A DNA stretch of 64,000 nucleotides. Source: an uncultured Armatimonadia bacterium. GTDB taxonomy: Bacteria > Armatimonadota > Zipacnadia > Zipacnadales > UBA11051. The notes beneath the pieces are model-generated. The model was not told the DNA's origin. It saw only the letters and a program-made list of their open reading frames with translations, and did not search any database. A program made the translations under genes and the position numbers. Below are positions 14,041-25,773 of the stretch, piece after piece (position 1 is the stretch's first letter; every line of letters starts with the position of its first letter). Location: positions 65,399-129,398 of the forward strand of contig CAZUOJ010000001.1 of assembly GCA_964622325.1 (NCBI GenBank), in the 5' to 3' direction.

Positions 14041-14698
14041 AATGTTAGAGCATTTAGAGGAAATCGCCGAACAATTGCGGGCTTATTTTGATGCTTTAGA
14101 TAAAGCCCGGGAAGAAGCGTATGTTTTGTCCCGACAAGTCATCCGGGCCGCTTCCGTAGCCATTAAGGAAGCGCATCGCCAGCACATTGCCGCAGCATAC
14201 GAACAATTAGCCGAAGCGCGGAAATTGACGGAGCAGATGCTGGCGGCAGTTGCCCAGGCTCCAGAATTGCGTTACGGCGGCTTCATTCATGACGCGGAAA
14301 AGGAATATTGCGAAGCCGCGCTGGTGCTGGCAGCCCTGACACAGGCCCCTTTGCCAGCGCCCGAGGCGCTGGGCGTCAATCCCATGGCCTGGATTAATGG
14401 CCTGGCGGAAATTGTCGGCGAATTGCGCCGTCATGTGCTGGATTTAATTCGGCTGGACAGGCCTTCAGAGGCTGAAGCCTATCTGGAGGCGATGGACAGC
14501 ATTTATCATGTGATTTTGAGCTTTGATTATCCCAACGCAATTTCGCAGGGGCTGCGCAGCCGTTCGGATGCGGCGCGGGGATTAATTGAACGCACACGCG
14601 GCGATTTGACAAATGCCCTGCGCGCCAGCAAATTAGAACAGCGTATGGCGGAGCTGGAAGAAAAATTAGAAAAACAGGCAAAAGCAAAAGAAGCGTAA
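14041..14698 (+). CDS. All-alpha translin-family-like protein (hypothetical)
   Basis: It has a GAGG RBS followed by an ATG at 14041. The N-terminal helices LEEIAEQLRAYFDALDKAREEAYVLSRQVIRAASVAIKEAHRQ and the C-terminal …GLRSRSDAARGLIERTRGDL resemble the translin family (…GLRKRYDGLKYDVKKVEE in human translin). This similarity is recalled, not searched. Confidence 0.4.
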
Positions 14699-14842
14699 TG
14701 CTTCGCCAAGCGGCCAGAAATTTGCTTCTAGCGGCGTCCCCCAAGGCTGTCTTCCCCGCACAGAAAGCGAGCCTCAGCGGCGGGAAACAACAGGCTTAGC
14801 TTTAGAGACGATTTTTCATTTGCGTCTCCGCAATCGTTATGC

Positions 14843-15178
14843 TTACATATCTATTTTGTCGTTGGGCAGATAGGGGCATTTGATAAACACTAGCCGAATA
14901 TCTTGCTGTGTGTCATTGATGATATTGTGGCATTCCGGAGCTTCCAGCCGCATCACATCGCCTGGCTGCAGGCGCAATTCTTGATTATCCGCTTCCATTT
15001 TCGGCGTGCCGGCATGGACATAAAAATGCTCTTCCACTTCCTGATGGCAATGCCGCCCCAATTGCTGCCCGGGCTTGAGGACAATGAGGCCCCATTCAAA
15101 TCTGGGCCCCCGAAACAGATATTTGGGGCCTGAATCGCCAAAGCGAAATTCGCGCTCCTGTTCGTTTATCAATTCCAT
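14843..15178 (-). CDS. Cupin-domain protein
   Basis: It is 111 aa. It has a cupin motif G(X)5HxH(X)3,4E(X)6G-like segment (GQQLGRHCHQEVEEHFYVHAG) and motif 2 (PGDVMRLEAPECHNIIN). Confidence 0.7.
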   Translation of the reverse strand: MELINEQEREFRFGDSGPKYLFRGPRFEWGLIVLKPGQQLGRHCHQEVEEHFYVHAGTPKMEADNQELRLQPGDVMRLEAPECHNIINDTQQDIRLVFIKCPYLPNDKIDM

Positions 15179-15205
15179 CCCGCAGCCCTCCTGTGTGAAA
15201 ATTAA

Positions 15206-16336
15206 TTAAAGCAGTTGCTTCAAAAGCTCATATAAGCTTTCTTCCGTCACAGGCCGTGGATTGTGTTGGCTGGAGCCTGCGCCCGCAGCTACAGAAATAA
15301 TCTGCGCGAAATCTTCTTCCCGCAAGCCCACATTTTTCCAGGAGCCGCTTACGCCTAATTCTTGCGTTAATTGTTCCGCCCATTCCACAAGTGCGGCGCC
15401 ATCTGGCGGCAGGCCTATTCGGGCGGCTAATTCGGCATAACGCTTCTCCGCCGCCGGCAAATTGAAACGCATCACATAGGGCAACAGCCAGCCGCACACG
15501 CGCCCGTGCGCCAAATGATACAGTGCTCCTAAAGGATGGGCCAGCCCATGGACAAGCCCCAGGCGGGCGCTGGCCAGCGCCAGGCCCGCCAGCAGGCTCC
15601 CCAATGCCATATCTTCCCGGGCGGCTGTATCCGAGCCGTCGGCAGCCACGCGCCGAATAGAACGCGCAATTCGCGCTACGGCCTCCGCGGCCCACATATC
15701 GCTCACGACATTCGCGCCTGTTGAAGTGTAGGACTCAATCGCCTGTGTCAGGGCATCTAAGCCAGAATAAATTGTCTGTTCCCGCGGCAGCTCCCATGTC
15801 AATTCCGGATCCACAATGGCCATACACGGCAAGAGTGCCAGGCCGCGAATGCTTGCCTTTTGTTTTTGGGCCGGATCAGAGAGCACAGCATTGGGCGTGA
15901 CTTCCGCCCCTGTTCCGGCTGTAGTGGGCAGAGCGAAAATCGGGACGCCCGGCTTGTTGAGCGTCGCCCCTGTGGAAAAGATATGTGCCACAGACTCTGG
16001 GGCAAACGCCAGCGCGCCCGCGGCTTTGCCGACATCAATAGCGCTGCCTCCGCCCACAGCGATAATGACATCCGCCTGATGGGCATGATAAGCTTGCCGG
16101 GCGCGTTCTACTGTCTCTAAAGAAGGCTCGGGCTCCACATCGGCAAACACGGCCGCCTGCAAGCCCCTGGCCGCCAGCAGACTCACAAAACACGCCGCGC
16201 GCTTTTGACTCACAGCGCTGCGGCCTGTAATCAGTAAAGGGCGTTTTCCCAGAGGCTCCACAAGCTTCCCCAGCTCTAGATGGGCGCCCTGCCCAAAAAT
16301 GATTTCATGGGGCGCTCGCAGCGTAAATTGCGTCAT
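15206..16336 (-). CDS. Iron-containing (group III) alcohol dehydrogenase family protein
   Basis: …AVGGGSAIDVGKA… is the NAD-binding GGGS motif. The His-rich metal site is present (…LVHGLAHPLGALYHLAHGRVCG…). Length is 376 aa. Confidence 0.8.
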   Translation of the reverse strand: MTQFTLRAPHEIIFGQGAHLELGKLVEPLGKRPLLITGRSAVSQKRAACFVSLLAARGLQAAVFADVEPEPSLETVERARQAYHAHQADVIIAVGGGSAIDVGKAAGALAFAPESVAHIFSTGATLNKPGVPIFALPTTAGTGAEVTPNAVLSDPAQKQKASIRGLALLPCMAIVDPELTWELPREQTIYSGLDALTQAIESYTSTGANVVSDMWAAEAVARIARSIRRVAADGSDTAAREDMALGSLLAGLALASARLGLVHGLAHPLGALYHLAHGRVCGWLLPYVMRFNLPAAEKRYAELAARIGLPPDGAALVEWAEQLTQELGVSGSWKNVGLREEDFAQIISVAAGAGSSQHNPRPVTEESLYELLKQLL

Positions 16337-16468
16337 ACAGCCTCCTGTGCAGGCGTTTTATATTGTTTCTATTTCCCCCATTATATTCCTTTTGGCTTAA
16401 TGGCTTAAAGGAATGGAAATTCTCGCGGCGAAAATAAGCTCATGATCAATTTAACGGAGCGAAACGAA

Positions 16469-17104
16469 ATGCGAACAAAGGCGATTTTAGCAGGAAACGA
16501 AGCCTGGCTTGTGCGGAGTCAGCCCCCGCCGCCTCCATCCACAATGCCGCCATTTGTGCCGCCCTCCTCGCCCGGGATGGCTAGCGCCCCGCCGCCAGGC
16601 AGGCGCCGCTTCCCCTGGCTGTGGCTCATTTTAGGCTGTGGCTGTTTAATTCTGTTGCTTGTGATTGTCGGGGCGATTGTGGGCGTGGGCTATTTTGCGT
16701 TTAAGGAAGCGCCCGAGCGTCTCAAATCCCTGGAAAAAGAAATTCCTCTTCCGCCGGGCCCCAAGACAGACACAAAGCCCGCTCCTGCGCTCCCAACAGC
16801 TCCCAAAGCGGACACGCGCCCCCAGGCTCCCTCCAGCGCGTCCCCGAACGCCACAGCTCCCGCCGCGCCCAAAACAACATCGCCTGCGTCTTCAGGCCCG
16901 CGGCCCTCTAAAAATGCAGCTATACGAGCCGCGTTAAGCTATTGTGAGAAGGGCTGGGTCGCCAAAATTATCCGCCACAATGTGGATTGGACGAAAGTGA
17001 CAGTTGCCGTAGGCCCCCCGGCCTCCGAGTGGGTCGGCGAAATTGATCTGCAATGGCGCGGCAAGGGCTATGTGGCCGTCAAAAAGCGGGCTACAGGCTA
17101 TTAA
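16469..17104 (+). CDS. Proline-rich single-pass membrane protein (hypothetical)
   Basis: It has a cytoplasmic Pro-rich N-terminus (SQPPPPPSTMPPFVPPSSPGMASAPPPG), one TM helix (WLWLILGCGCLILLLVIVGAIVGVGYF), an extracytoplasmic P/A/T-rich linker and a small C-terminal domain. The start is 16442 or 16469. Confidence 0.5.
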   Translation: MRTKAILAGNEAWLVRSQPPPPPSTMPPFVPPSSPGMASAPPPGRRRFPWLWLILGCGCLILLLVIVGAIVGVGYFAFKEAPERLKSLEKEIPLPPGPKTDTKPAPALPTAPKADTRPQAPSSASPNATAPAAPKTTSPASSGPRPSKNAAIRAALSYCEKGWVAKIIRHNVDWTKVTVAVGPPASEWVGEIDLQWRGKGYVAVKKRATGY

Positions 17105-17223
17105 AATGCTTCGGAGCCCTCAGCACACTGTCAAGGCTAGACAGGCATATGGCAATACAATCAGGAACGCCGACAAAGATAGGCTAGAGGAGAAATTGAA
17201 GGCCAAGAAAGTGTACGGGCTAA

Positions 17224-18048
17224 TCAGGCTTCTTGGGCCTGGAGCTGCTGATAAAATTCGTCGCGATAGCTCAGCGGAAAGACGATAGAAGGCACGGACT
17301 GCTGAATATCTTTGCCCGTACGATATTTTTGTTGTGTTAAGGCATTCCGCTCCCGCAATTCCGCATTGGCGTCCAGTTCCCGGCATATATCCAGCAAATC
17401 CGGCGGCATAAAAGGCGGATGAGGCAGCCGGGCAAATAGCTCGCGCACAACTGCTAAATCATCCTGATCATCCACGCAAATACGATATTGCGGCCGATAG
17501 AGGGGGGCAGGCGCCAGAACAGACAACGCGGAAAAGCGCGGATAATGCCGCCGCAGGGCGGGAGTCACATGTTCATGATCGCTGGGACGATTGGCCAGGG
17601 GAACGCTGGCCGCCAGCGCTTTTGTTGTAAAAACTTCGCTTTGCACGCCCAAAGGGAAGACATCCCGAATGCAATTGGCGGCATAATCCACGCCCGCGGC
17701 GAGATGTTGCGCCACAATAAAATCGCTGAGCCAGGGGCACCACATCGGCGAATCGCCCGAAATGCGCACAATCACATCTACTTCAAAATGTTTGGCGCAT
17801 TGCAAATAGCGATCCAGCACATCCTCTTCGCTGCCGCGAAAAACGTCTGCGCCGTATTGGCGGGCGAGCTCTTCGATTAGATCATCGTCGGGATTTACGG
17901 TTGTGGCGACAATAATGCGATCCACAAGCCGGCTGGCTTGAGCGGCTAAAATTGTCCAGCCCAAAAGCGTGTGGCCAGCCAGAGGAACTATAGGTTTGTT
18001 GGGCAGCCGTTGGGCATTCATTCGCGCCTGGATAATGGCGGCAATCAT
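17224..18048 (-). CDS. Cytidylyltransferase-domain protein (SpsF / CMP-sugar synthetase family)
   Basis: MIAAIIQARMNAQRLPNKPIVPL matches the SpsF-type N-terminus (IIQARMGSTRLPGKVLRPL). Confidence 0.65.
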   Translation of the reverse strand: MIAAIIQARMNAQRLPNKPIVPLAGHTLLGWTILAAQASRLVDRIIVATTVNPDDDLIEELARQYGADVFRGSEEDVLDRYLQCAKHFEVDVIVRISGDSPMWCPWLSDFIVAQHLAAGVDYAANCIRDVFPLGVQSEVFTTKALAASVPLANRPSDHEHVTPALRRHYPRFSALSVLAPAPLYRPQYRICVDDQDDLAVVRELFARLPHPPFMPPDLLDICRELDANAELRERNALTQQKYRTGKDIQQSVPSIVFPLSYRDEFYQQLQAQEA

Positions 18049-18101
18049 GAGCGCTCCTAGCAGAAGCAAAAGAAATTAATTTACGCCACGCAAATTGATA
18101 G

Positions 18102-18872
18102 CTAGATTCCGTTCCAGCCAAATATGCGACGTGCATTTTCGGCTGTTTGCCGGGCAATGGCTTCCCAGGATGTGCCACGTGCCTGGGCAACGGCTTCCGC
18201 CACATAACGCAAATACGCCGGCTCATTGCGCTCCCCCCGATGTGGCTGCGGAGGCAGCCACGGACAATCTGTCTCTATAAGCAGCTGCTCCAGCGGCATT
18301 TCCGCCGCAATTTTACGCAGGGCAAAGGCCTTCGGATATGTGATCGGCCCTGCCAGCCCCAGATAAAAGCCCCGCTGGACACATTCGCACGCAAATTCCC
18401 AGCCTCCTGAAAAGCAATGCATAATGATTTTTTGTTCCGCCCGCAGATGCTTATCCAGCAAGGCCAAACATTCGTCTTGCGCCTCTCGGCAATGCACAAT
18501 CAAGGGCAAGGCCAATTCCGCCGCCAGAGCAATGAAAGCAATGAACGCCTCCCGTTGTTTCTCTGGCGGCGACAAATTCCGATAATAATCCAGGCCCGTT
18601 TCGCCAAGGGCCACGACACGATGATGCGCCGCTATCTGGCGGATTTCTTGCAGCACCTCAGGCGTCACATCTTCTGCCTCATGGGGATGCACGCCGACGC
18701 TTGCCCATAAATCCGGCTCTTTTTCCGCTAATTGACAGGCGACGCGGCTAGAAGGCAAATTGTAGCCGACGACAACGCAAGCCTGCAGGCCTTGCAAACG
18801 CGCTCGGCGCAAAACATCCTCCCGGTCGGGCGCAAAGCTAGGATCATTCAGATGGGCATGCGAATCGATCAC
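18102..18872 (-). CDS. tatD: TatD-family metal-dependent hydrolase (DNase)
   Basis: MIDSHAHLND… start, internal …GETGLDYYR…, …HCREAQDE…, …HCFSG… and …ETDCPWL… motifs that define TatD. Confidence 0.85.
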   Translation of the reverse strand: MIDSHAHLNDPSFAPDREDVLRRARLQGLQACVVVGYNLPSSRVACQLAEKEPDLWASVGVHPHEAEDVTPEVLQEIRQIAAHHRVVALGETGLDYYRNLSPPEKQREAFIAFIALAAELALPLIVHCREAQDECLALLDKHLRAEQKIIMHCFSGGWEFACECVQRGFYLGLAGPITYPKAFALRKIAAEMPLEQLLIETDCPWLPPQPHRGERNEPAYLRYVAEAVAQARGTSWEAIARQTAENARRIFGWNGI

Positions 18873-18914
18873 AGCGTTATAAACTTTCTTTATCGCGCGA
18901 AGCTCATTTCGCAG

Positions 18915-19112
18915 CTATGAAGATTGAGAGGGAGTGGAGTCGGATTTAGGCTCCAGCAATTTTATCGCCTCATCCAGCCCCGCCCGCGCCGCAAGCAGCA
19001 ATTCCACGCCTGCCCGGCGCAAATGTTTCACAGACGGACATTGATTGATTTTTCGCTGCATTTCCTGAAGGCGCTGCACACATTCTGTAAAGGGCTTTTG
19101 TGAAAAGCTCAT
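18915..19112 (-). CDS. Small hypothetical protein (65 aa)
   Basis: The ATG at 19112 is preceded by GGAGATTAACG. The translation is MSFSQKPFTECVQRLQEMQRKINQCPSVKHLRRAGVELLLAARAGLDEAIKLLEPKSDSTPSQSS. The longer ORF-track version to 19262 has no RBS support. Confidence 0.35.
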   Translation of the reverse strand: MSFSQKPFTECVQRLQEMQRKINQCPSVKHLRRAGVELLLAARAGLDEAIKLLEPKSDSTPSQSS

Positions 19113-19420
19113 CGTTAATCTCCTTATAAAGAGGCTAAAGCTTTCGTTTTTGTCCCTCTGAATATCCTCTTCGATTTTCAGGATGAGCCCCCCGAATTTA
19201 TTATAACAAACAATGGCCAAAAGAAAAACGCCTCCTGCAAACTCCCAGAAGGCGTTATGCAATTTACTTTTTTCTGTACGAAGAGATTTAGAACAGGCGC
19301 TCGAGGTAATAAAGCGTTGCCCCTTTATTGTCTTTTTTTCTATATAAATCCGAAAAGCTATTTCGCTCCGCTCTGTGAGGCGGATCTGTCAAATTTGCTT
19401 GTACGAACCGAAATCTATTT

Positions 19421-20014
19421 TTATACAGACGCCAGTGGCGGCGGCTCGGGCAGCACTTCCCGCGGCCCTTGCAAATCGCCCATCGGGATATCAAAAGGCC
19501 GGCCCACAGAATAAAAGCCTAATTTTTCCAGCGCCTGTTTAGCCATCTCGCGCACCACTAACGCTGGCTTTTCGCCCACTTTCGCGCCCCCCTGCGCTGT
19601 TTGCAGGGCTGGAATAGCACGGCGATCCCCAATTTCGCCCAGCACCCACGCCGCCCGTCCTCGGAAGGGCTCCGCAAGATGGGCATTATTCAGCACTTTC
19701 GCCACTTCATCCACGACGGGATTGGGCTTTTTGGGATCCGGCTCGTTCACTTCGCGTCCCTTTTTGACAAGCGCCACTCCCGCCATATCATACAACTCGT
19801 CATCCCCTTGCAGCACATCCACTAACAATTCAATTGTACGCTCATCCTCCAGATTTGCTAACGCCAGCACGGCGGCGCGACGTGTCTCCACATCCTGCGA
19901 TTTTATGTCTTCGCTCAGCCGTTCCAGCGGATCAATCGTGCAGCCGTTTAAAATGATAGCCAAGGCAAAAAGCGCCCCGCTTAAAATTGTCTTGCGCATA
20001 AAAAGCCTCCCCAT
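19421..20014 (-). CDS. HEAT-repeat (PBS-lyase-like) lipoprotein
   Basis: It has a lipoprotein signal (…ALFALAIILNGC, a lipobox) and HEAT-like repeats (RRAAVLALANLEDERTIELLVDVL and RGRAAWVLGEIGDRRAIPALQTA). The probable start is MRKTIL at 19999. Confidence 0.6.
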   Translation of the reverse strand: MGRLFMRKTILSGALFALAIILNGCTIDPLERLSEDIKSQDVETRRAAVLALANLEDERTIELLVDVLQGDDELYDMAGVALVKKGREVNEPDPKKPNPVVDEVAKVLNNAHLAEPFRGRAAWVLGEIGDRRAIPALQTAQGGAKVGEKPALVVREMAKQALEKLGFYSVGRPFDIPMGDLQGPREVLPEPPPLASV

Positions 20015-20041
20015 AATCCTTATACTGATACTGAAAAATCA

Positions 20042-21103
20042 TTAATCGGGCAAACGCAGCAGTCGGACTGCTTCAGAAGCGGCGGCTCGTGCCCAGAAAT
20101 GATCGTCCATCTTGGCTTTCTGGATGGCTTCCGTGACTCGTGGCAACAAATCCGCTGAAGGGCGCGTCTTGCCCAGGGCATAAATACAGGCAATCCGCAC
20201 ATCCCCCACTTTGTCCTGTAAGCCCTCCAGCAGCCCGTTAATGGCCTTGCTCATGGCGCTTTCGTCAATGTTCGGCGAGCTGGCGGCGTCGCCCAAAGCA
20301 TAGGCGGCGGCCACACGCACTTCCGCGTCCGGCTCAGCCTCCCCTAAAGCTGTCACGAGGGCATCAATGCCGGCTTTGTCTCCCAGATGCCCGAGCGCCC
20401 GCGCCGCCGCAATCCGTACGGGAATTGTCGTATCAGGAGGCGGGGCAGGCGCAGCTGCTGTTGTGCCAGGGGCGGCATTCTCCGCTGCGGGCGCCGTCGC
20501 CGCTGGCGCTGGCCGCTCCGCCAGAGCATTGATAAGCGCGGAAGCGCCGCCCGGATCCCCAATCGCCCCTAATGCATAAGCTGCCGCCACCCGAATTTCA
20601 TTCTTTTCTTCTTTTTTGCCCAGAATGGCCGCGATCGGCTGGACGGCCTCCTTATAGCGCAATTGCCCCAAAGCCTGCATCGCTGCAATCCGCAGTACAG
20701 GATCCGGAGATTGCAAAGCGGCAATAAGATCGGCGGCGAATTTTTTATTGCCCGTCATCCCCAGAAGCCAGGCCGCCCGGGCCGCTGCCTCTCCTTGTCC
20801 CATCCGCACCATTTGCGCCAGTTGAGGCCCGATGGCGCCGCCGCGCTCGCGCAACGCGGCCAGCGCCTCCATCACTTTATCCGGCTCCTGGCTCGCCAGA
20901 TCGGCTAAATGTTTGCTGGTGCGGCGTACGGCGCTTATCCAGCTAATCACATACGCGGCCACGATGATGACAACAATGACGACGAGGACTTTAATGGTTC
21001 TCTTGCTCACACGCATCAGCTCACAAAAATTATGCTTTTTCGTCTCAGGCACGGAGTTGCCCGGCCTGTATGTCCCTGAATAGGCCTCAAATCTGAATGC
21101 CAA
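20042..21103 (-). CDS. Membrane-anchored HEAT-repeat protein
   Basis: It has an N-terminal TM (IKVLVVIVVIIVAAYVISWI). At least five HEAT-like units follow (PVLRIAAMQALGQL, VRVAAAYALGAIGDPG, VRIAAARALGHLGDKAG, VRVAAAYALGDAAS, VRIACIYALGK). A low-complexity Ala/Pro linker is present. The start is uncertain (TTG 21103 or ATG 21016). Confidence 0.6.
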   Translation of the reverse strand: MAFRFEAYSGTYRPGNSVPETKKHNFCELMRVSKRTIKVLVVIVVIIVAAYVISWISAVRRTSKHLADLASQEPDKVMEALAALRERGGAIGPQLAQMVRMGQGEAAARAAWLLGMTGNKKFAADLIAALQSPDPVLRIAAMQALGQLRYKEAVQPIAAILGKKEEKNEIRVAAAYALGAIGDPGGASALINALAERPAPAATAPAAENAAPGTTAAAPAPPPDTTIPVRIAAARALGHLGDKAGIDALVTALGEAEPDAEVRVAAAYALGDAASSPNIDESAMSKAINGLLEGLQDKVGDVRIACIYALGKTRPSADLLPRVTEAIQKAKMDDHFWARAAASEAVRLLRLPD

Positions 21104-21120
21104 TAGGGGAGTTCATCCGC

Positions 21121-23895
21121 CTAGCTCGCTTGCGCCTGGCGAATCAACTCCAGTTTTTCTTCAATGGCCTGTACTTGCGAGGGCTGCGGCCGCTCCGGCT
21201 CGGGCAGATGTTTCATCAATTGCAGCGCCATTGCATCCCCAATAATTTGCAATGTAGACGCCAGCCATTGTCGTTGATTCAGGCTTCGTTTGGCTTCGCC
21301 GCGGGCGCGCAGCGCCTTTTCCGTAGCGGGCTTTCCGATGGCCGCCAATATCGCCGCGGCCCACACGCGCGTCTGCTCATCCGGAGAATCCAGTTGTTCA
21401 ATCAGACTGTCCACGGGAATGTCCTGCATATTGGCCAGCGCCGTCGCCGCTGCCAGCCGCAATTGCGGATCAGTGGTCGCTGATGTGACTAATGAGATGA
21501 GCATTTCGCCGGCCTGGCCCATCTTCTTCTGCACGCCTTCGCCCAGCATCGCCGCCCGCCGCACGCCTATCATGGCAATGGCCTTGGCGGCGGGCAACGC
21601 CAAGGGTTCGCCCGGCTGCAGCAAAGCCTTGATTTTGTCAATCGCTTGTTCATTCGCCACAAAGCCCAGCGCTATCAAAGCATCTGTGCGCACATTGCGG
21701 GGCGCGGCGTTATCCAGCGCCGCCTCCACAAGCACAGGCTGCAAGGATTGCTGGAGCTGCTGTTGTGCCGCTTCGCTGCCCGCGGCCACCTCTCGCAGCA
21801 ATTGATTTGTGATGCTGGCTGTCTGGAACACTAGCGCAATGGCGGCCCGGCGCTTGGCATCTGTATCCTCTTTGTGCAAAAGCTCTTGCAACAATTTTTG
21901 CACGGGATCCATTCGCCAATTTTTGAGCAAAGCCAGCGCCACATCGCGTACTTCTCTTTGCGCATCCTGCAGGCCAGCCACAAGATTCGCCGTCGCCTCC
22001 GCATAGCCCAAGCGCGCCAGGGCGCGCAGGGCGGCGATGCGCACAATAGCCTCAGGCGCCTCAGCCGCTTTTTGCAGGGGCGGAAGCGCACTCGCCATCC
22101 CCGTCGCGCCCAATGCTCGGGCGGCGCTGGCGCGGGCGGCAGCAGGGGCGGCAGGATTAGCCAGCAGATGGCTGAGCGGCTCCACGGCGGGCTCGCCAAT
22201 TTCGCCTAACGCAATGCTGGCCCAATTCCGTACTTGTTCATTCCCTGAAAGCAGGCTTTGCACAAGCCCAGGCACGGCGGGCGCGCCAATGCGTGTAAGC
22301 GCCATCTGCGCCATATGCCCCACACGCACTTGCGGATGCGCCAGCGCCTTCAGCAGTGTCGGCACTGCGGGCGCGCCGATTTTGGCCAACGCATCCCGCG
22401 CCGCATAATACACTTGCCATTTATCATCCGTCAAAGCCGCGGCTAAGGCCGGAAGCACTTGTTGCGCCGCCGCCACGAGCGAAGACACGGAAGCATTGCG
22501 CAGGGCATCAGACGCCACTTGCCGCACTTCAGGCGACCCCGGATCGCGCAACGCTGCCGCCAAAAACACAATGGCTTCCGGCCCGCCAATTTGGGCCACT
22601 GTTTGCGTGGCTAACAAACGCACTTCCGGATTCGGCGAAGCCAGAGCCGGCTTCAGCGGCGGCACGGATAGAGCGCCGATACGAATCAGCGCCGTCGAAA
22701 TCTCCCGCGAGGCGCCCGAGACATTCGCTATAAGCATCGCCGCCATTTTCTCCGCCGCAGCCTTGGCTTCCGCAATCTTATAGGTTTTGGGATCAGGCGG
22801 GGGCGGGGCAGCGGGGGCGGCCGCGCCTGTTGCGCCCGTGGCTGTAGCCGGCGTTGCGGGCGTTGCTGGGGCCGGCGGCGTTGCTAATTTGGCCGCAGCC
22901 TCGCGCACATCGGCGCCAAGGACTTTCCCCAGGGCTTCCGCTGCCGCTTGCCGCACGCCCATATGCGCATCGTCCAGACGCGCCATTAATACAGGCGTGG
23001 CATTGTGCAGAAGCGCTAGGGCTCCCAGAGCGCCAATGGCCGCCGTCGCCTTCCGGCGAACGCCCCAATCCGGATCCTTCGTCGCGGCCACTAGTGGCCC
23101 CACAACTTGCGGCGCCTCTTCTGGCTTGAGTCCGGCCCCGATTGTGCCCAGCATTGTCGCCGCTTGCCCCCGCACATCGGGCGATTTATAAACTAATAGC
23201 TCCTTCGTTATCGCCTCGACGGCGTTGATTTTCATATTGAGCAGTGATGTAATGGCGCAATCCCGTTCACGATTATATTCAGCCGGCTCTTGGCCCGGCC
23301 GTGGCTCGCCGCGCTGAATGATTTTTACAAGCTCATGCGTCACGGGCTTGCCAATCCCTCCAAATACTGTCGCCACGCCAGTGCGAATGTAATCATCCCA
23401 GGCGCCCATCAGAGGCAGCAAATAGGGGATTGTCGGTTCGCCAATCGCTGTCAGCACGCCCGGAGCGCCTGCCCGCACGGCCGCATCTTTGTCTGTCAAC
23501 GCCTCCACAAGCGGCGGAATGGCTAAGGCCCCAAAACGAGCGACAACAGCCTGAATGCGCGGCTGCACAGGCGCATCCACTACTGTCCAGCAGCTCATAA
23601 GCTGAAACAGAGCTTTTTCGGTGCCAATAAAGCTCACGGCTTCCACGACATAATCCTGGATCCAGCGGGGCTGATTCGCCACGGCCTCCTGCAGTTTTTG
23701 CGTCTCAATAAGCCGATTTACGGCCGCCAGGCGCTGCACGGGAGAGCCGTATGCAATTTGATGGCGTAAACGATTGATTTCTCCTCGCCGCCCACTGGCA
23801 TAAATAATCAGACACAGGGCTAATCCCGCCAAAATGATGCGCGTTATTTGCCGCCTGAGCTGTTCGTCCACGGGCTTCAACTCCTCCTGCTTCAC
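21121..23895 (-). CDS. Large (924 aa) membrane-anchored HEAT-repeat protein
   Basis: It has an N-terminal TM (ITRIILAGLALCLIIYASG), an A/P/T-rich linker (ATPPAPATPATPATATGATGAAAPAAPPPP) and many dozens of xxVRxxAxxALGxIG HEAT/PBS-lyase-type repeats along its whole length. Confidence 0.65.
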   Translation of the reverse strand: MKQEELKPVDEQLRRQITRIILAGLALCLIIYASGRRGEINRLRHQIAYGSPVQRLAAVNRLIETQKLQEAVANQPRWIQDYVVEAVSFIGTEKALFQLMSCWTVVDAPVQPRIQAVVARFGALAIPPLVEALTDKDAAVRAGAPGVLTAIGEPTIPYLLPLMGAWDDYIRTGVATVFGGIGKPVTHELVKIIQRGEPRPGQEPAEYNRERDCAITSLLNMKINAVEAITKELLVYKSPDVRGQAATMLGTIGAGLKPEEAPQVVGPLVAATKDPDWGVRRKATAAIGALGALALLHNATPVLMARLDDAHMGVRQAAAEALGKVLGADVREAAAKLATPPAPATPATPATATGATGAAAPAAPPPPDPKTYKIAEAKAAAEKMAAMLIANVSGASREISTALIRIGALSVPPLKPALASPNPEVRLLATQTVAQIGGPEAIVFLAAALRDPGSPEVRQVASDALRNASVSSLVAAAQQVLPALAAALTDDKWQVYYAARDALAKIGAPAVPTLLKALAHPQVRVGHMAQMALTRIGAPAVPGLVQSLLSGNEQVRNWASIALGEIGEPAVEPLSHLLANPAAPAAARASAARALGATGMASALPPLQKAAEAPEAIVRIAALRALARLGYAEATANLVAGLQDAQREVRDVALALLKNWRMDPVQKLLQELLHKEDTDAKRRAAIALVFQTASITNQLLREVAAGSEAAQQQLQQSLQPVLVEAALDNAAPRNVRTDALIALGFVANEQAIDKIKALLQPGEPLALPAAKAIAMIGVRRAAMLGEGVQKKMGQAGEMLISLVTSATTDPQLRLAAATALANMQDIPVDSLIEQLDSPDEQTRVWAAAILAAIGKPATEKALRARGEAKRSLNQRQWLASTLQIIGDAMALQLMKHLPEPERPQPSQVQAIEEKLELIRQAQAS

Positions 23896-24084: not shown

Positions 24085-25656
24085 TTACATTGTGTCCAAA
24101 AGCCTCCAAAAAGCCGTCGCCGCCTCAGAAAAGCTAAAGCCATGTCCTCCCATCAGCGTCAATAAGCCGTCAAAGGAGCGGCAGCGTAAAATGGATATAA
24201 GCTCCTTGACTTCTCCTTGGCCGCGGCCGGGCACTGTCTCCGCTGGCCAGCCTGGCCGCCGGCAGCCATCCGCCAACATCAATTGCACTGTATAGCGCTT
24301 TAATTTCCCGCGCGTCCATGTCTTCAAAAAAGGATTCTCCCCCACATAGGCAAAATGACGCGGATTAAACGAAAAGCGAACCGCCGGATGATTGACTTCC
24401 TGCAATATAGCCGCACAGCTGGCACTATCTCGCCACAGCCCGGCCGCATGATTTTCAAGGAGCAAAATAATGTGATGCTGAGCGGCCACATTAGCGAGAT
24501 TCTGGAGAGCCGCCACGGCGCGGGGCATTTTTTCCGCTATCTCTGCCTCACTGGCTATCCAGGGCGGCAATTTGAAATATTCTGGCGCCAGCGCCTCCGC
24601 TTGCCGTAGCGTCTGTTCCAGCTTCTCTGCCTGTTCCGCCGCCGACGCTTCCCAATTGATTGCGCAGGGCCATACAGCCACATGGCAGTTAGCTTCCTGG
24701 ATTTGCGCACAAAAATGGGCGAAAGCTTCCGGGCCGGCCTGTTCCAGGGATTGCACAAGCTGGGAAGAAATTTCCAGCGTCTCAATGCCTTCAGCTTTTA
24801 TATCCCACAGGGCATTGCCGATTTCATCAGGCGGATATATGCCTGAAAGCAAGCCGCTGAGCGTAAAATCTTCGCCTAAAAGGCGTGCGCGTTTTATCTC
24901 CGCTCGCTGCTTCACACAATCCTCACAATGCGGATTGTCACAAAGCACGGCTGCGGGATTTTTCTGCAAAGCCTCCACAGCCAGCCGCAGAACTTCTGAA
25001 GCCTTCATCAGCCGACAAACCGCTTTGCCGATCCGTCCAATCCGCATCGCCCCGGCTTCTAAAAAGAGCCGATCCAGCTGGATAAAATCCCTGTGGGGGC
25101 CCGGGAATTGCTCCAGCACTTTTGTTTGCCGCACGCCCTGCTCATCGTAATAATCCCGCATAATTGTATTCAAATAGGGGCTTCCTACGAGCTCTTCGGC
25201 TAAATGCAGCAATGTATTGCGATCCTGATCGCAGCCGATAAAAAGCAAATAGCCATTTTCGTGTTTGGCGACGCGCCCCCAGGGCGATTCGGGGCCAATG
25301 GCTGTGGGCTGATTGATGTGGCCGGCTAAAATCTCGGCGGCTTTAGGCCCCACGCCAGCGGCAGAATGTGTCGGATGTATGCTCCGTATTGTTTCGGGCC
25401 GCCGCCAAAAACGATCCGTTATGGCTCCCACTGTGGAAGGTGTCTCATGAACATTGAATACGGCTGCGCTGCCCATCGCCGGCATTAAGATTGTGCCCGT
25501 AGGCCCGACAGCCTCAATTAGCGCATCTATCACAGTGTCGGCCCCGCCCTCTACATAGCCCAGCGCCGAGAGGGAAGAATGTACCATTAATATCATTCCA
25601 GGCTCCACGCCTAATTCTTGAAGCCCCTGTTTGATCTCTTCTTTCGTCAATGCCAT
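24085..25656 (-). CDS. Fusion protein: N-terminal AAC(3)-family (aminoglycoside 3-N-acetyltransferase-like) domain + C-terminal xylose-isomerase-like TIM-barrel (sugar phosphate isomerase/epimerase) domain
   Basis: The N-terminus MALTKEEIKQGLQELGVEPGMILMVHSSLSALGYVEGGADTVIDALIEAVGPTGTILMP is the AAC(3)/YokD-family opening. The C-terminal ~270 aa has the xylose-isomerase-like TIM-barrel pattern (…IETLEIS…, …HIILLLENH…, …MGGHGFSF…). The ATG at 25656 is preceded by GGAGTGGACGGACG. Confidence 0.55.
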   Translation of the reverse strand: MALTKEEIKQGLQELGVEPGMILMVHSSLSALGYVEGGADTVIDALIEAVGPTGTILMPAMGSAAVFNVHETPSTVGAITDRFWRRPETIRSIHPTHSAAGVGPKAAEILAGHINQPTAIGPESPWGRVAKHENGYLLFIGCDQDRNTLLHLAEELVGSPYLNTIMRDYYDEQGVRQTKVLEQFPGPHRDFIQLDRLFLEAGAMRIGRIGKAVCRLMKASEVLRLAVEALQKNPAAVLCDNPHCEDCVKQRAEIKRARLLGEDFTLSGLLSGIYPPDEIGNALWDIKAEGIETLEISSQLVQSLEQAGPEAFAHFCAQIQEANCHVAVWPCAINWEASAAEQAEKLEQTLRQAEALAPEYFKLPPWIASEAEIAEKMPRAVAALQNLANVAAQHHIILLLENHAAGLWRDSASCAAILQEVNHPAVRFSFNPRHFAYVGENPFLKTWTRGKLKRYTVQLMLADGCRRPGWPAETVPGRGQGEVKELISILRCRSFDGLLTLMGGHGFSFSEAATAFWRLLDTM

Positions 25657-25773
25657 CGTCCGTCCACTCCATTTTTCCCAGGAAAACACAACAAAAAAAT
25701 TAATTATCTTGTTTGGCACAATTGCTGCTTGCGCGTCCGCGAAAGAATAAAATTATCGCTTTAAAGTTTTGTG

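Follow-up and report, generated by a model that had tools for sequence, protein, structure and literature searches.

The window analysed in this study is a stretch of 64,000 nucleotides from an uncultured Armatimonadia bacterium (contig CAZUOJ010000001.1, positions 65,399 to 129,398), and it carries three consecutive minus-strand genes, hereafter called the trio, that encode a large, a middle and a small HEAT-repeat protein. Comparison with related genomes indicated that the trio is a real conserved unit restricted to Armatimonadota. What is new here is the phylum-restricted, three-component tethered HEAT module; the HEAT_PBS repeat class from which it is built is known. Tentatively, and with somewhat less than even confidence, we read the trio as a membrane-tethered, non-enzymatic alpha-solenoid scaffold of the cell envelope, which would bind proteins on the periplasmic side.

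Conservation and layout of the trio

A search with the small-protein alignment against one genome per species returned 46 orthologous loci (L008-L053). When the window proteins were mapped onto all loci, the trio was seen in order on one strand at every locus whose contig extended far enough. Informative loci, with 3.9 kb or more of sequence ahead of the small gene, numbered 35. The large, middle and small genes lay in this order on one strand at 34 of these 35 loci under a strict colinearity test, and the 35th (L009) held all three in the same order as split matches. The relatives were labelled as metagenome-assembled genomes (MAGs) of Armatimonadota, Armatimonadia, Candidatus Zipacnadia or 'candidate division WS1'. 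Identities to the window fell to 34% for the large, 28% for the middle and 47% for the small protein. Moreover, the upstream genes varied and were unrelated from locus to locus: folate genes and an AAC(3) fusion in the window, NIF3 and AddAB in L004, and a tetratricopeptide repeat (TPR) gene and a division-cluster neighbourhood in L005 and L006. Because the order was kept despite these differing flanks and at such low identities, the trio is under selection as a unit, and a joint function of the three proteins is supported by the conserved gene order.

The small lipoprotein was the best conserved member (47-80% identity), and its wider family comprised 238 clusters at 90% identity, all of about 190-220 aa. 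For the large protein, about 25 full-length relatives were found, with lengths of 860-936 aa and identities of 39-96%. Pairwise BLASTP among the three proteins gave E-values of 3e-4, 5e-4 and 0.014, which reflected repeat motifs only. On these comparisons, the trio represents three separate families kept together and no recent paralogue cluster. A lineage-specific paralogue cluster had been named as the alternative in a preliminary description of this DNA, and it fails on the conserved order and on the likeness of the three families at the repeat level only. Public annotations of the relatives were confined to 'HEAT repeat domain-containing protein' or 'hypothetical protein', and full-text literature searches returned no paper on this family and no description of the trio.

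An apparent fusion of the middle and small genes in L029 was rejected, since a TAG stop is present between them. Two distant relatives of the small lipoprotein, P0197 (460 aa) and P0201 (410 aa), keep the signal peptide, the lipobox and the HEAT core and carry an extra C-terminal extension of 200-250 aa. Further distant relatives, P0026-P0030 (about 1390-1440 aa), begin with a transmembrane (TM) segment at the N-terminus, followed by a lengthy acidic linker and a single HEAT_PBS array of great length; given this architecture, the idea that these proteins of about 1400 aa were fusions of all three trio members was rejected. In addition, loci L055 and L059, from Methanomicrobiales and Methanoregula MAGs, suggested that similar HEAT arrays occur in methanogens.

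The features of the locus, with gene starts as revised below, are the following.

21121-23871, minus strand: large HEAT gene, 916 aa from GTG 23871; the longest open reading frame (ORF) reaches 23895
23791-23847, minus strand: single N-terminal TM helix of the large protein, about residues 9-27, its only membrane-level peak, conserved in 31 orthologues
22786-22887, minus strand: Ala/Pro/Thr-rich disordered linker of the large protein, residues 329-362, between solenoids I and II
20042-21016, minus strand: middle HEAT gene, about 322-324 aa from ATG 21016 or GTG 21010; the longest ORF extends to 21103
20933-20995, minus strand: single N-terminal TM helix of the middle protein, with a Kyte-Doolittle peak of 2.92, the sole one
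20429-20521, minus strand: Ala/Pro/Thr-rich insertion of the middle protein, residues 164-194, of low complexity, AERPAPAATAPAAENAAPGTTAAAPAPPPDTT
19421-19999, minus strand: small HEAT lipoprotein gene, 192 aa from ATG 19999
19940-19999, minus strand: lipoprotein signal peptide of the small protein, ending in the lipobox L-N-G-C, with the Cys20 codon at 19940-19942
19227-19256, minus strand: terminator-like hairpin from a consensus scan, with an 11-bp stem and a T-run, about 165 nt 3' of the small gene

The sizes of 197, 353 and 924 aa given in the preliminary description were those of the longest ORFs, all on the minus strand (19421-20014, 20042-21103 and 21121-23895), and they had to be revised to 192, about 322-324 and 916 aa with the corrected starts. 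The start region of the large gene reads GTG-aagc-AGGAGG-agttgaagccc-GTG-GAC-GAA, in which the second GTG is 23871 and the Shine-Dalgarno sequence AGGAGG (23883-23888) lies 11 nt 5' of it. Among orthologues of the large protein, a seemingly conserved 'EEL' 5' of the start is translated GAGGAG, the candidate start codons lie 8 residues ahead of the membrane helix, and the N-termini follow M-D-E-x-T-R-[R/Q]-Q. Furthermore, gene callers also give the large protein as 916 aa on near-identical contigs. In the small gene, GGGGAGG lies 6 nt 5' of ATG 19999. The start of the middle gene was placed by the N-terminal conservation of 41 orthologues, which read (M)-x-V-N/S-R/K-R/K-T and then enter the TM segment; no clear ribosome-binding site was seen in the sequence at ATG 21016 or GTG 21010. 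No exact-sequence match was returned for the longest ORFs of 924 and 197 aa, since the true starts lie inside them; the locus was recovered with tatD as the query. The corrected starts also give intergenic gaps of about 104 and 42 nt, so that the spacers of 18-27 nt, from which an operon had been proposed, are no longer tenable, whereas the same-strand, operon-like arrangement stands.

Folds, anchors and orientation

The three consecutive HEAT proteins of the preliminary description were borne out by profile scans well over the Pfam cut-offs. HEAT_2 (PF13646) scored 42.6, 109.4 and 211.4 bits for the small, middle and large proteins against a cut-off of 27.7, with E-values of 7.5e-11, 1.1e-31 and 1.6e-63, the large protein being matched in 8 stretches. 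HEAT_PBS (PF03130) scored 45.1, 66.4 and 52.8 bits in the same order against a cut-off of 20.9, with E-values of 6.7e-12 for the small and 8.2e-19 for the middle protein.

The AlphaFold2 model of the small protein, built with 29 orthologues, had a predicted local distance difference test (pLDDT) score of 93 and a predicted template modelling (pTM) score of 0.86. It showed eight helices (four hairpins) after the signal peptide, together with a short beta-hairpin insertion, and a C-terminal tail that has no secondary structure yet was modelled with high confidence and so is likely packed against the solenoid. The model of the large protein (23 sequences; pLDDT 86, pTM 0.60) comprised 54 helices in about 25 hairpins, in keeping with the earlier count of more than 20 HEAT units. 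In this model, residues 3-41 form a single continuous helix that contains the membrane span and a basic juxtamembrane stretch. Solenoid I (residues 44-330) has about 20 helices in about 10 hairpins, solenoid II (residues 366-886) has about 31 helices in about 15 hairpins with a disordered loop at 687-698, and a terminal helix occupies residues 897-915. A sequence profile made from the window's own repeats clearly recognised about 15 units in the large, about 6 in the middle and 2-3 in the small protein. Foldseek searches against the PDB matched the small protein to alphaRep designs, deoxyhypusine hydroxylase (DOHH) and importin-alpha, and the large protein to SF3B1, CAND1, importin-beta and PP2A-A. 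A profile search of PDB sequences agreed with Foldseek, in that it returned generic HEAT solenoids only.

The middle protein ends in a conserved C-terminal motif, D-x-H-Y-W-V-R. An L-P-E-P-like motif was observed near the C-termini of both other proteins (K-H-L-P-x-x-E-x-P in the large and L-P-E-P-x-P-L in the small one). A PEP-CTERM signal was rejected for both, since the small protein ends in ..LPEPPPLASV without a hydrophobic helix and the LPEPE of the large protein is followed by an amphipathic helix and no TM segment.

The Ala/Pro/Thr-rich linkers reported in the preliminary description are present in the window, and residues 334-359 of the large-protein linker had pLDDT values below 50 in the AlphaFold2 model. 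However, they are not conserved: the insertion of the middle protein occurred at 7 of the 41 related loci compared, and most orthologues have no such linkers. The linkers are therefore lineage-specific and no defining feature of the trio, and for that reason their use as a sign of periplasm spanning was dropped. Likewise, the DNA at 22780-22900 is GC-rich as described (73.6%, against 52.3% for the window) but only weakly repetitive, with one 24-bp unit present twice and GGCGGG repeated 3.8 times.

The N-terminal anchors proposed earlier were upheld by hydrophobicity analysis and by the orthologues. Each protein contains exactly one strongly hydrophobic segment, which is N-terminal and forms a lipobox-bearing signal peptide in the small protein and a single TM helix in each of the other two. 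The signal peptide of the small protein in the window, MRKTILSGALFALAIILNG-C, has a basic n-region and a hydrophobic core and ends in ILNGC. Across 29 orthologues, residues G19, C20, D23 and P24 never vary; most of these orthologues read [AT]GC, and the window is unusual in having Asn at position -2. The distant members of the small-protein family retain the signal peptide and lipobox arrangement as well. The small protein is accordingly placed outside the cytoplasm by prediction, as an extracytoplasmic lipoprotein, with high confidence.

For the two TM proteins, net charge was computed from 15 flanking residues, with the free amino terminus included. The TM helix of the middle protein spans 20 residues on average in 41 orthologues and is preceded by an N-tail of 4-5 residues with one or two Arg/Lys. 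The net charge on its N side was more positive in 35 of the 41 orthologues and never less positive, which predicts an N-in/C-out orientation. For the large protein, net charge hardly differs between the two sides of the helix (1.0 versus 1.3), and its orientation is ambiguous on both the net-charge and the raw-count measure. Export by the twin-arginine translocation (Tat) pathway, whose signals carry S/T-R-R-x-F-L-K before the hydrophobic segment, was considered for the large protein, which has T-R-R-Q-I-T-W and basic residues past the helix, and was rejected because the second Arg is often Gln (T-R-Q-Q). No invariant twin-arginine motif was found in the middle protein either, where N-R-R, N-T-R, S-K-R and similar triplets occur. 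Thus, the earlier proposal of extracytoplasmic solenoids holds for the small protein with its invariant lipobox, whereas the positive-inside rule gave no clear orientation for the other two.

Cysteine content offered another indication. After the first 30 residues, the median Cys contents of the trio were 0.24%, 0.34% and 0.55%, compared with 1.63% for likely cytoplasmic and 0.77% for likely exported or anchored neighbours in the same loci, and these low values may hint at an outside location. As a further indirect sign of an outside location, HEAT_PBS arrays in membrane proteins of other phyla were found where the extracytoplasmic sensor domain would be expected. In a Gemmatimonadota MAG (L054, 467-2706), a gene for an extracytoplasmic function (ECF) sigma factor is followed by one for a zf-HC2 anti-sigma factor with a C-terminal HEAT_PBS array. 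In an Acidobacteriota MAG (L056, 5674-10844), the gene after that of a BlaI-type repressor encodes a BlaR1-like Peptidase_M56 membrane protein of 1591 aa, in which a HEAT_PBS array of about 1100 aa replaces the penicillin-binding sensor domain. By analogy with such regulators, both arrays presumably face outward.

Armatimonadota have been described as Gram-negative diderms with lipopolysaccharide (LPS) genes (PMC10290634), and the phylum is reported to have OmpM homologues (bioRxiv 10.1101/2021.05.31.446380); therefore, a periplasm exists. It is on balance somewhat probable that all three HEAT domains lie in this compartment, and a HEAT domain of the large protein facing the cytoplasm is considered unlikely without being negligible.

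Scaffold reading, neighbouring genes and rival explanations

HEAT solenoids are protein-binding scaffolds. The structural neighbours of the trio models are themselves HEAT binders or scaffolds (alphaRep, importin, PP2A-A, CAND1 and SF3B1), and Pfam and NCBIfam scans revealed no catalytic signature or signalling domain in the trio. In the scaffold reading, the three genes would be co-transcribed as one Armatimonadota-restricted transcription unit. The 916-aa protein would display two solenoids of about 10 and about 15 hairpins behind its N-terminal TM helix, the approximately 322-aa protein would display about 7-8 hairpins behind its own, and the 192-aa protein would add a lipid-anchored solenoid of four hairpins with an ordered, conserved C-terminal tail. 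All three solenoids would stand on the periplasmic side, where their partners may be one another, other exported proteins or both, and the trio would in this way organise some envelope process.

Three further genes recur downstream of the trio in other genomes (L004-L052). The first two, g4 (about 425 aa, with a cleavable signal peptide) and g5 (about 540 aa, with a signal peptide), lie downstream at 15 and 19 loci, respectively. The third, g6 (about 440 aa, with a strongly hydrophobic, membrane-like N-terminal region), is on the opposite strand and occurs at 10 loci. Examples beside the trio in L006 are at 14534-15808, 16090-17706 and 17683-19005. None of the three matched a Pfam or NCBIfam family. 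The g4 profile matched the solved alpha-solenoid TON_1535 (3zpj, E 8e-11). The g5 profile gave weak, concordant matches to PHP-domain proteins (E 0.09-0.6), and its consensus, DLRV..S.DS, indicates that the usual PHP histidines are apparently replaced. All three genes are absent from the 64-kb window, and from their distribution they are frequent companions and no obligatory parts of the trio.

In the window, the trio is flanked by an AAC(3) fusion with a triosephosphate isomerase (TIM) barrel upstream and by tatD downstream, as had been described; tatD encodes a nuclease with no bearing on export. The fusion ORF lies at 24085-25719 on the minus strand (gene callers use 24085-25656, 523 aa) and joins an aminoglycoside 3-N-acetyltransferase domain, Antibiotic_NAT (E 3.8e-53), to a xylose-isomerase-like AP_endonuc_2 domain (E 5e-12). 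It scored under all AAC(3) resistance-family cut-offs, and the same fusion occurs in L001 and L002. Between the small gene and tatD lies a 65-aa ORF (18915-19112, minus strand), which is annotated as PF27253 (AF_1253) in a public collection and had no Pfam or NCBIfam match in our own scan; a 72-aa relative of it lies downstream of the trio and g4 in L006, L007 and L008. A 220-aa ORF on the plus strand (16442-17104) is rich in Pro at its N-terminus and also contains a single hydrophobic segment and a stretch rich in Pro, Ala, Thr and Ser; its counterpart in L001 had no Pfam match. No RNA families were found within the window with Rfam. The terminator-like hairpin is followed by a TATAAT-like hexamer; it likely marks the end of the trio transcription unit and fits a unit of three genes.

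Several observations weigh against the scaffold reading and have to be set beside this evidence. The hairpin is a consensus match only, and a consensus scan found no convincing sigma-70 promoter upstream of the large gene. The secreted neighbours are also absent from about one third of the loci, and HEAT composition may explain part of the low Cys content. Furthermore, raw counts of Lys and Arg were higher on the C side of the helix in 30 of 41 middle-protein and 23 of 31 large-protein orthologues, and an invariant Arg-Arg pair (Arg28, Arg29) directly follows the helix of the large protein, which fits a cytoplasmic domain. These last features also speak for a split topology, in which the large and possibly the middle protein would be inserted N-out/C-in like ZipA, with cytoplasmic solenoids and only the lipoprotein outside, so that scaffolds would stand on both faces of the inner membrane. 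The short N-tail of the large protein with its two acidic residues, the AlphaFold2 model in which the TM helix runs on into a basic juxtamembrane helix, and the cytoplasmic location of characterised HEAT_PBS proteins such as CpcE/F, DOHH and QueG point the same way. However, every orthologue has one or two Arg/Lys right before the helix, as in the n-region of a signal anchor, the N-tail of the middle protein never has a net charge below that of its C-flank, strong Cys depletion is common to all three proteins, and both the operon partner and the frequent neighbours are exported. A split arrangement is therefore regarded as unlikely, although it deserves the most serious attention among the alternatives. 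The trio could also consist of extracytoplasmic ligand-binding arrays that lack a signalling domain of their own and whose solenoids would have an external molecule or a polymer of the envelope as ligand instead of one another. The anti-sigma and BlaR1-type architectures of L054 and L056, which use HEAT_PBS as outside-facing sensor modules, are consistent with this, and the small protein is the best conserved member, as expected of a specific binding surface. Nevertheless, no signalling, enzymatic or transport domain is found in the trio or consistently beside it, and no ligand is indicated; the idea overlaps the scaffold model, is inseparable from it by sequence, and is given a low probability.

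A more elaborate form of the scaffold, with the large and middle proteins in the inner membrane, the lipoprotein in the outer membrane and the secreted g4 and g5 docking on them, would make a composite alpha-solenoid that spans the periplasm. The presence of OmpM homologues in the phylum weakens the idea of an outer-membrane tether, and this composite is rated slightly lower still. It is very improbable that the trio is a chance cluster of lineage-specific HEAT paralogues without joint function. HEAT genes are indeed numerous in environmental bacteria, and a profile search returned 15,197 representatives at E<=1e-3; but the three proteins are not close paralogues, each has its own full-length orthologue family, and their order persists at 35 of 35 loci despite changed flanks. 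The identities of 28-64% speak against a recently transferred island. The least credible reading, to which we attach hardly any weight, makes the proteins enzymes of the PBS-lyase type (bilin attachment or detachment) or of the di-iron deoxyhypusine-hydroxylase type. HEAT_PBS repeats, weak NCBIfam matches to CpcE, CpcF and NblB, and DOHH matches by sequence and fold are what it can draw on. However, the NCBIfam scores for CpcE, CpcF, CpeY and NblB ranged from 24.6 to 77 bits against curated cut-offs of 220-330, with the best equivalog matches being CpcF (77 versus 220 bits), NblB (62.4 versus 300) and CpcE (47.5 versus 330). No conserved His-Glu pairs, the ligands of a di-iron site, were present among the invariant or near-invariant columns of the small- and large-protein alignments; moreover, the small protein is exported, and Armatimonadota are not generally known to make phycobilisomes. 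For anti-phage defence systems, PADLOC gave short repeat-level matches to HEAT-ARM_XIII only (for example positions 789-970 of 1972), with no partner genes.

If the trio is an envelope scaffold, it would represent a lineage-specific way to organise the periplasm of a Terrabacteria-type diderm; if the composite spanning form were true, it would be a previously undescribed, Armatimonadota-specific system of envelope architecture or spacing. Metagenomes are rich in bacterial HEAT proteins, nearly all of which carry no label beyond 'HEAT repeat domain-containing protein'. Against this background, the trio stands out as a defined, conserved and tethered unit, with at least one securely exported member, in a poorly known and largely uncultured phylum. 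It settles no long-standing question, and it offers a concrete target for complex structure prediction, for metaproteomics and, once a carrier has been cultured, for cryo-tomography.

Comparison with known systems

By its profile matches, the trio belongs to the HEAT_PBS/HEAT_2 superfamily, and it matched none of the functionally defined families tested. Solved relatives of the HEAT_PBS class are MTH187/alphaRep, DOHH, QueG, YibA and CpcE/F. The preliminary description had stated that such proteins have no assigned function outside cyanobacteria, which was too broad, since DOHH and the C-terminal domain of epoxyqueuosine reductase are among these solved relatives. The best sequence and fold matches to the small protein were to MTH187/alphaRep (PDB profile E 8e-26 to 1e-9; Foldseek TM-scores of about 0.5-0.6 at about 30% identity), with which it shares the helix-turn-helix unit of about 31 residues and the xxVRxxAxxALGxIGD motif. 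The MTH187/alphaRep proteins bind other proteins through their concave face. Unlike the trio, they are soluble, without signal peptide, lipobox or TM segment, and lack both conserved partners and an operon setting; the small protein, in turn, differs from them in its beta-hairpin insertion and ordered C-terminal tail.

CpcE/CpcF, CpeY and NblB share the HEAT_PBS repeat type with the trio. Two or more phycobilisome HEAT proteins of the CpcE/CpcF type are encoded side by side and act as a complex. In contrast to the trio, which is anchored, has at least one exported member and belongs to a phylum not known to be phototrophic, CpcE/CpcF, CpeY and NblB are cytoplasmic, soluble and cyanobacterial. 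The likeness to DOHH (4d4z) is confined to the level of fold and repeat. The zf-HC2 anti-sigma factor of L054 and the BlaR1-type M56 sensor of L056 resemble the trio in having a membrane anchor followed by a HEAT_PBS array, whereas the trio and its orthologous loci have no zf-HC2 or Peptidase_M56 domain and no adjacent sigma factor or repressor. The large protein shares with ZipA a short N-tail of mixed charge and a lone helix with basic residues behind it, to which this lineage adds a linker rich in Pro; it has no sequence relationship to ZipA, its C-flank is much less basic, and its linker is not conserved.

BamD, LpoA, AlgK, PilF/PilW and CpoB are non-enzymatic alpha-solenoids of the TPR or Sel1 type from diderm bacteria, tethered by a lipid or a helix, that organise envelope machines. 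They differ from the trio in being built of TPR or Sel1-like repeats instead of HEAT repeats, show no homology to it, and are each tied to a known machine. The parallel is one of function, drawn from general knowledge, and on that footing these tethered scaffolds of the envelope would be the nearest functional analogues of the trio.

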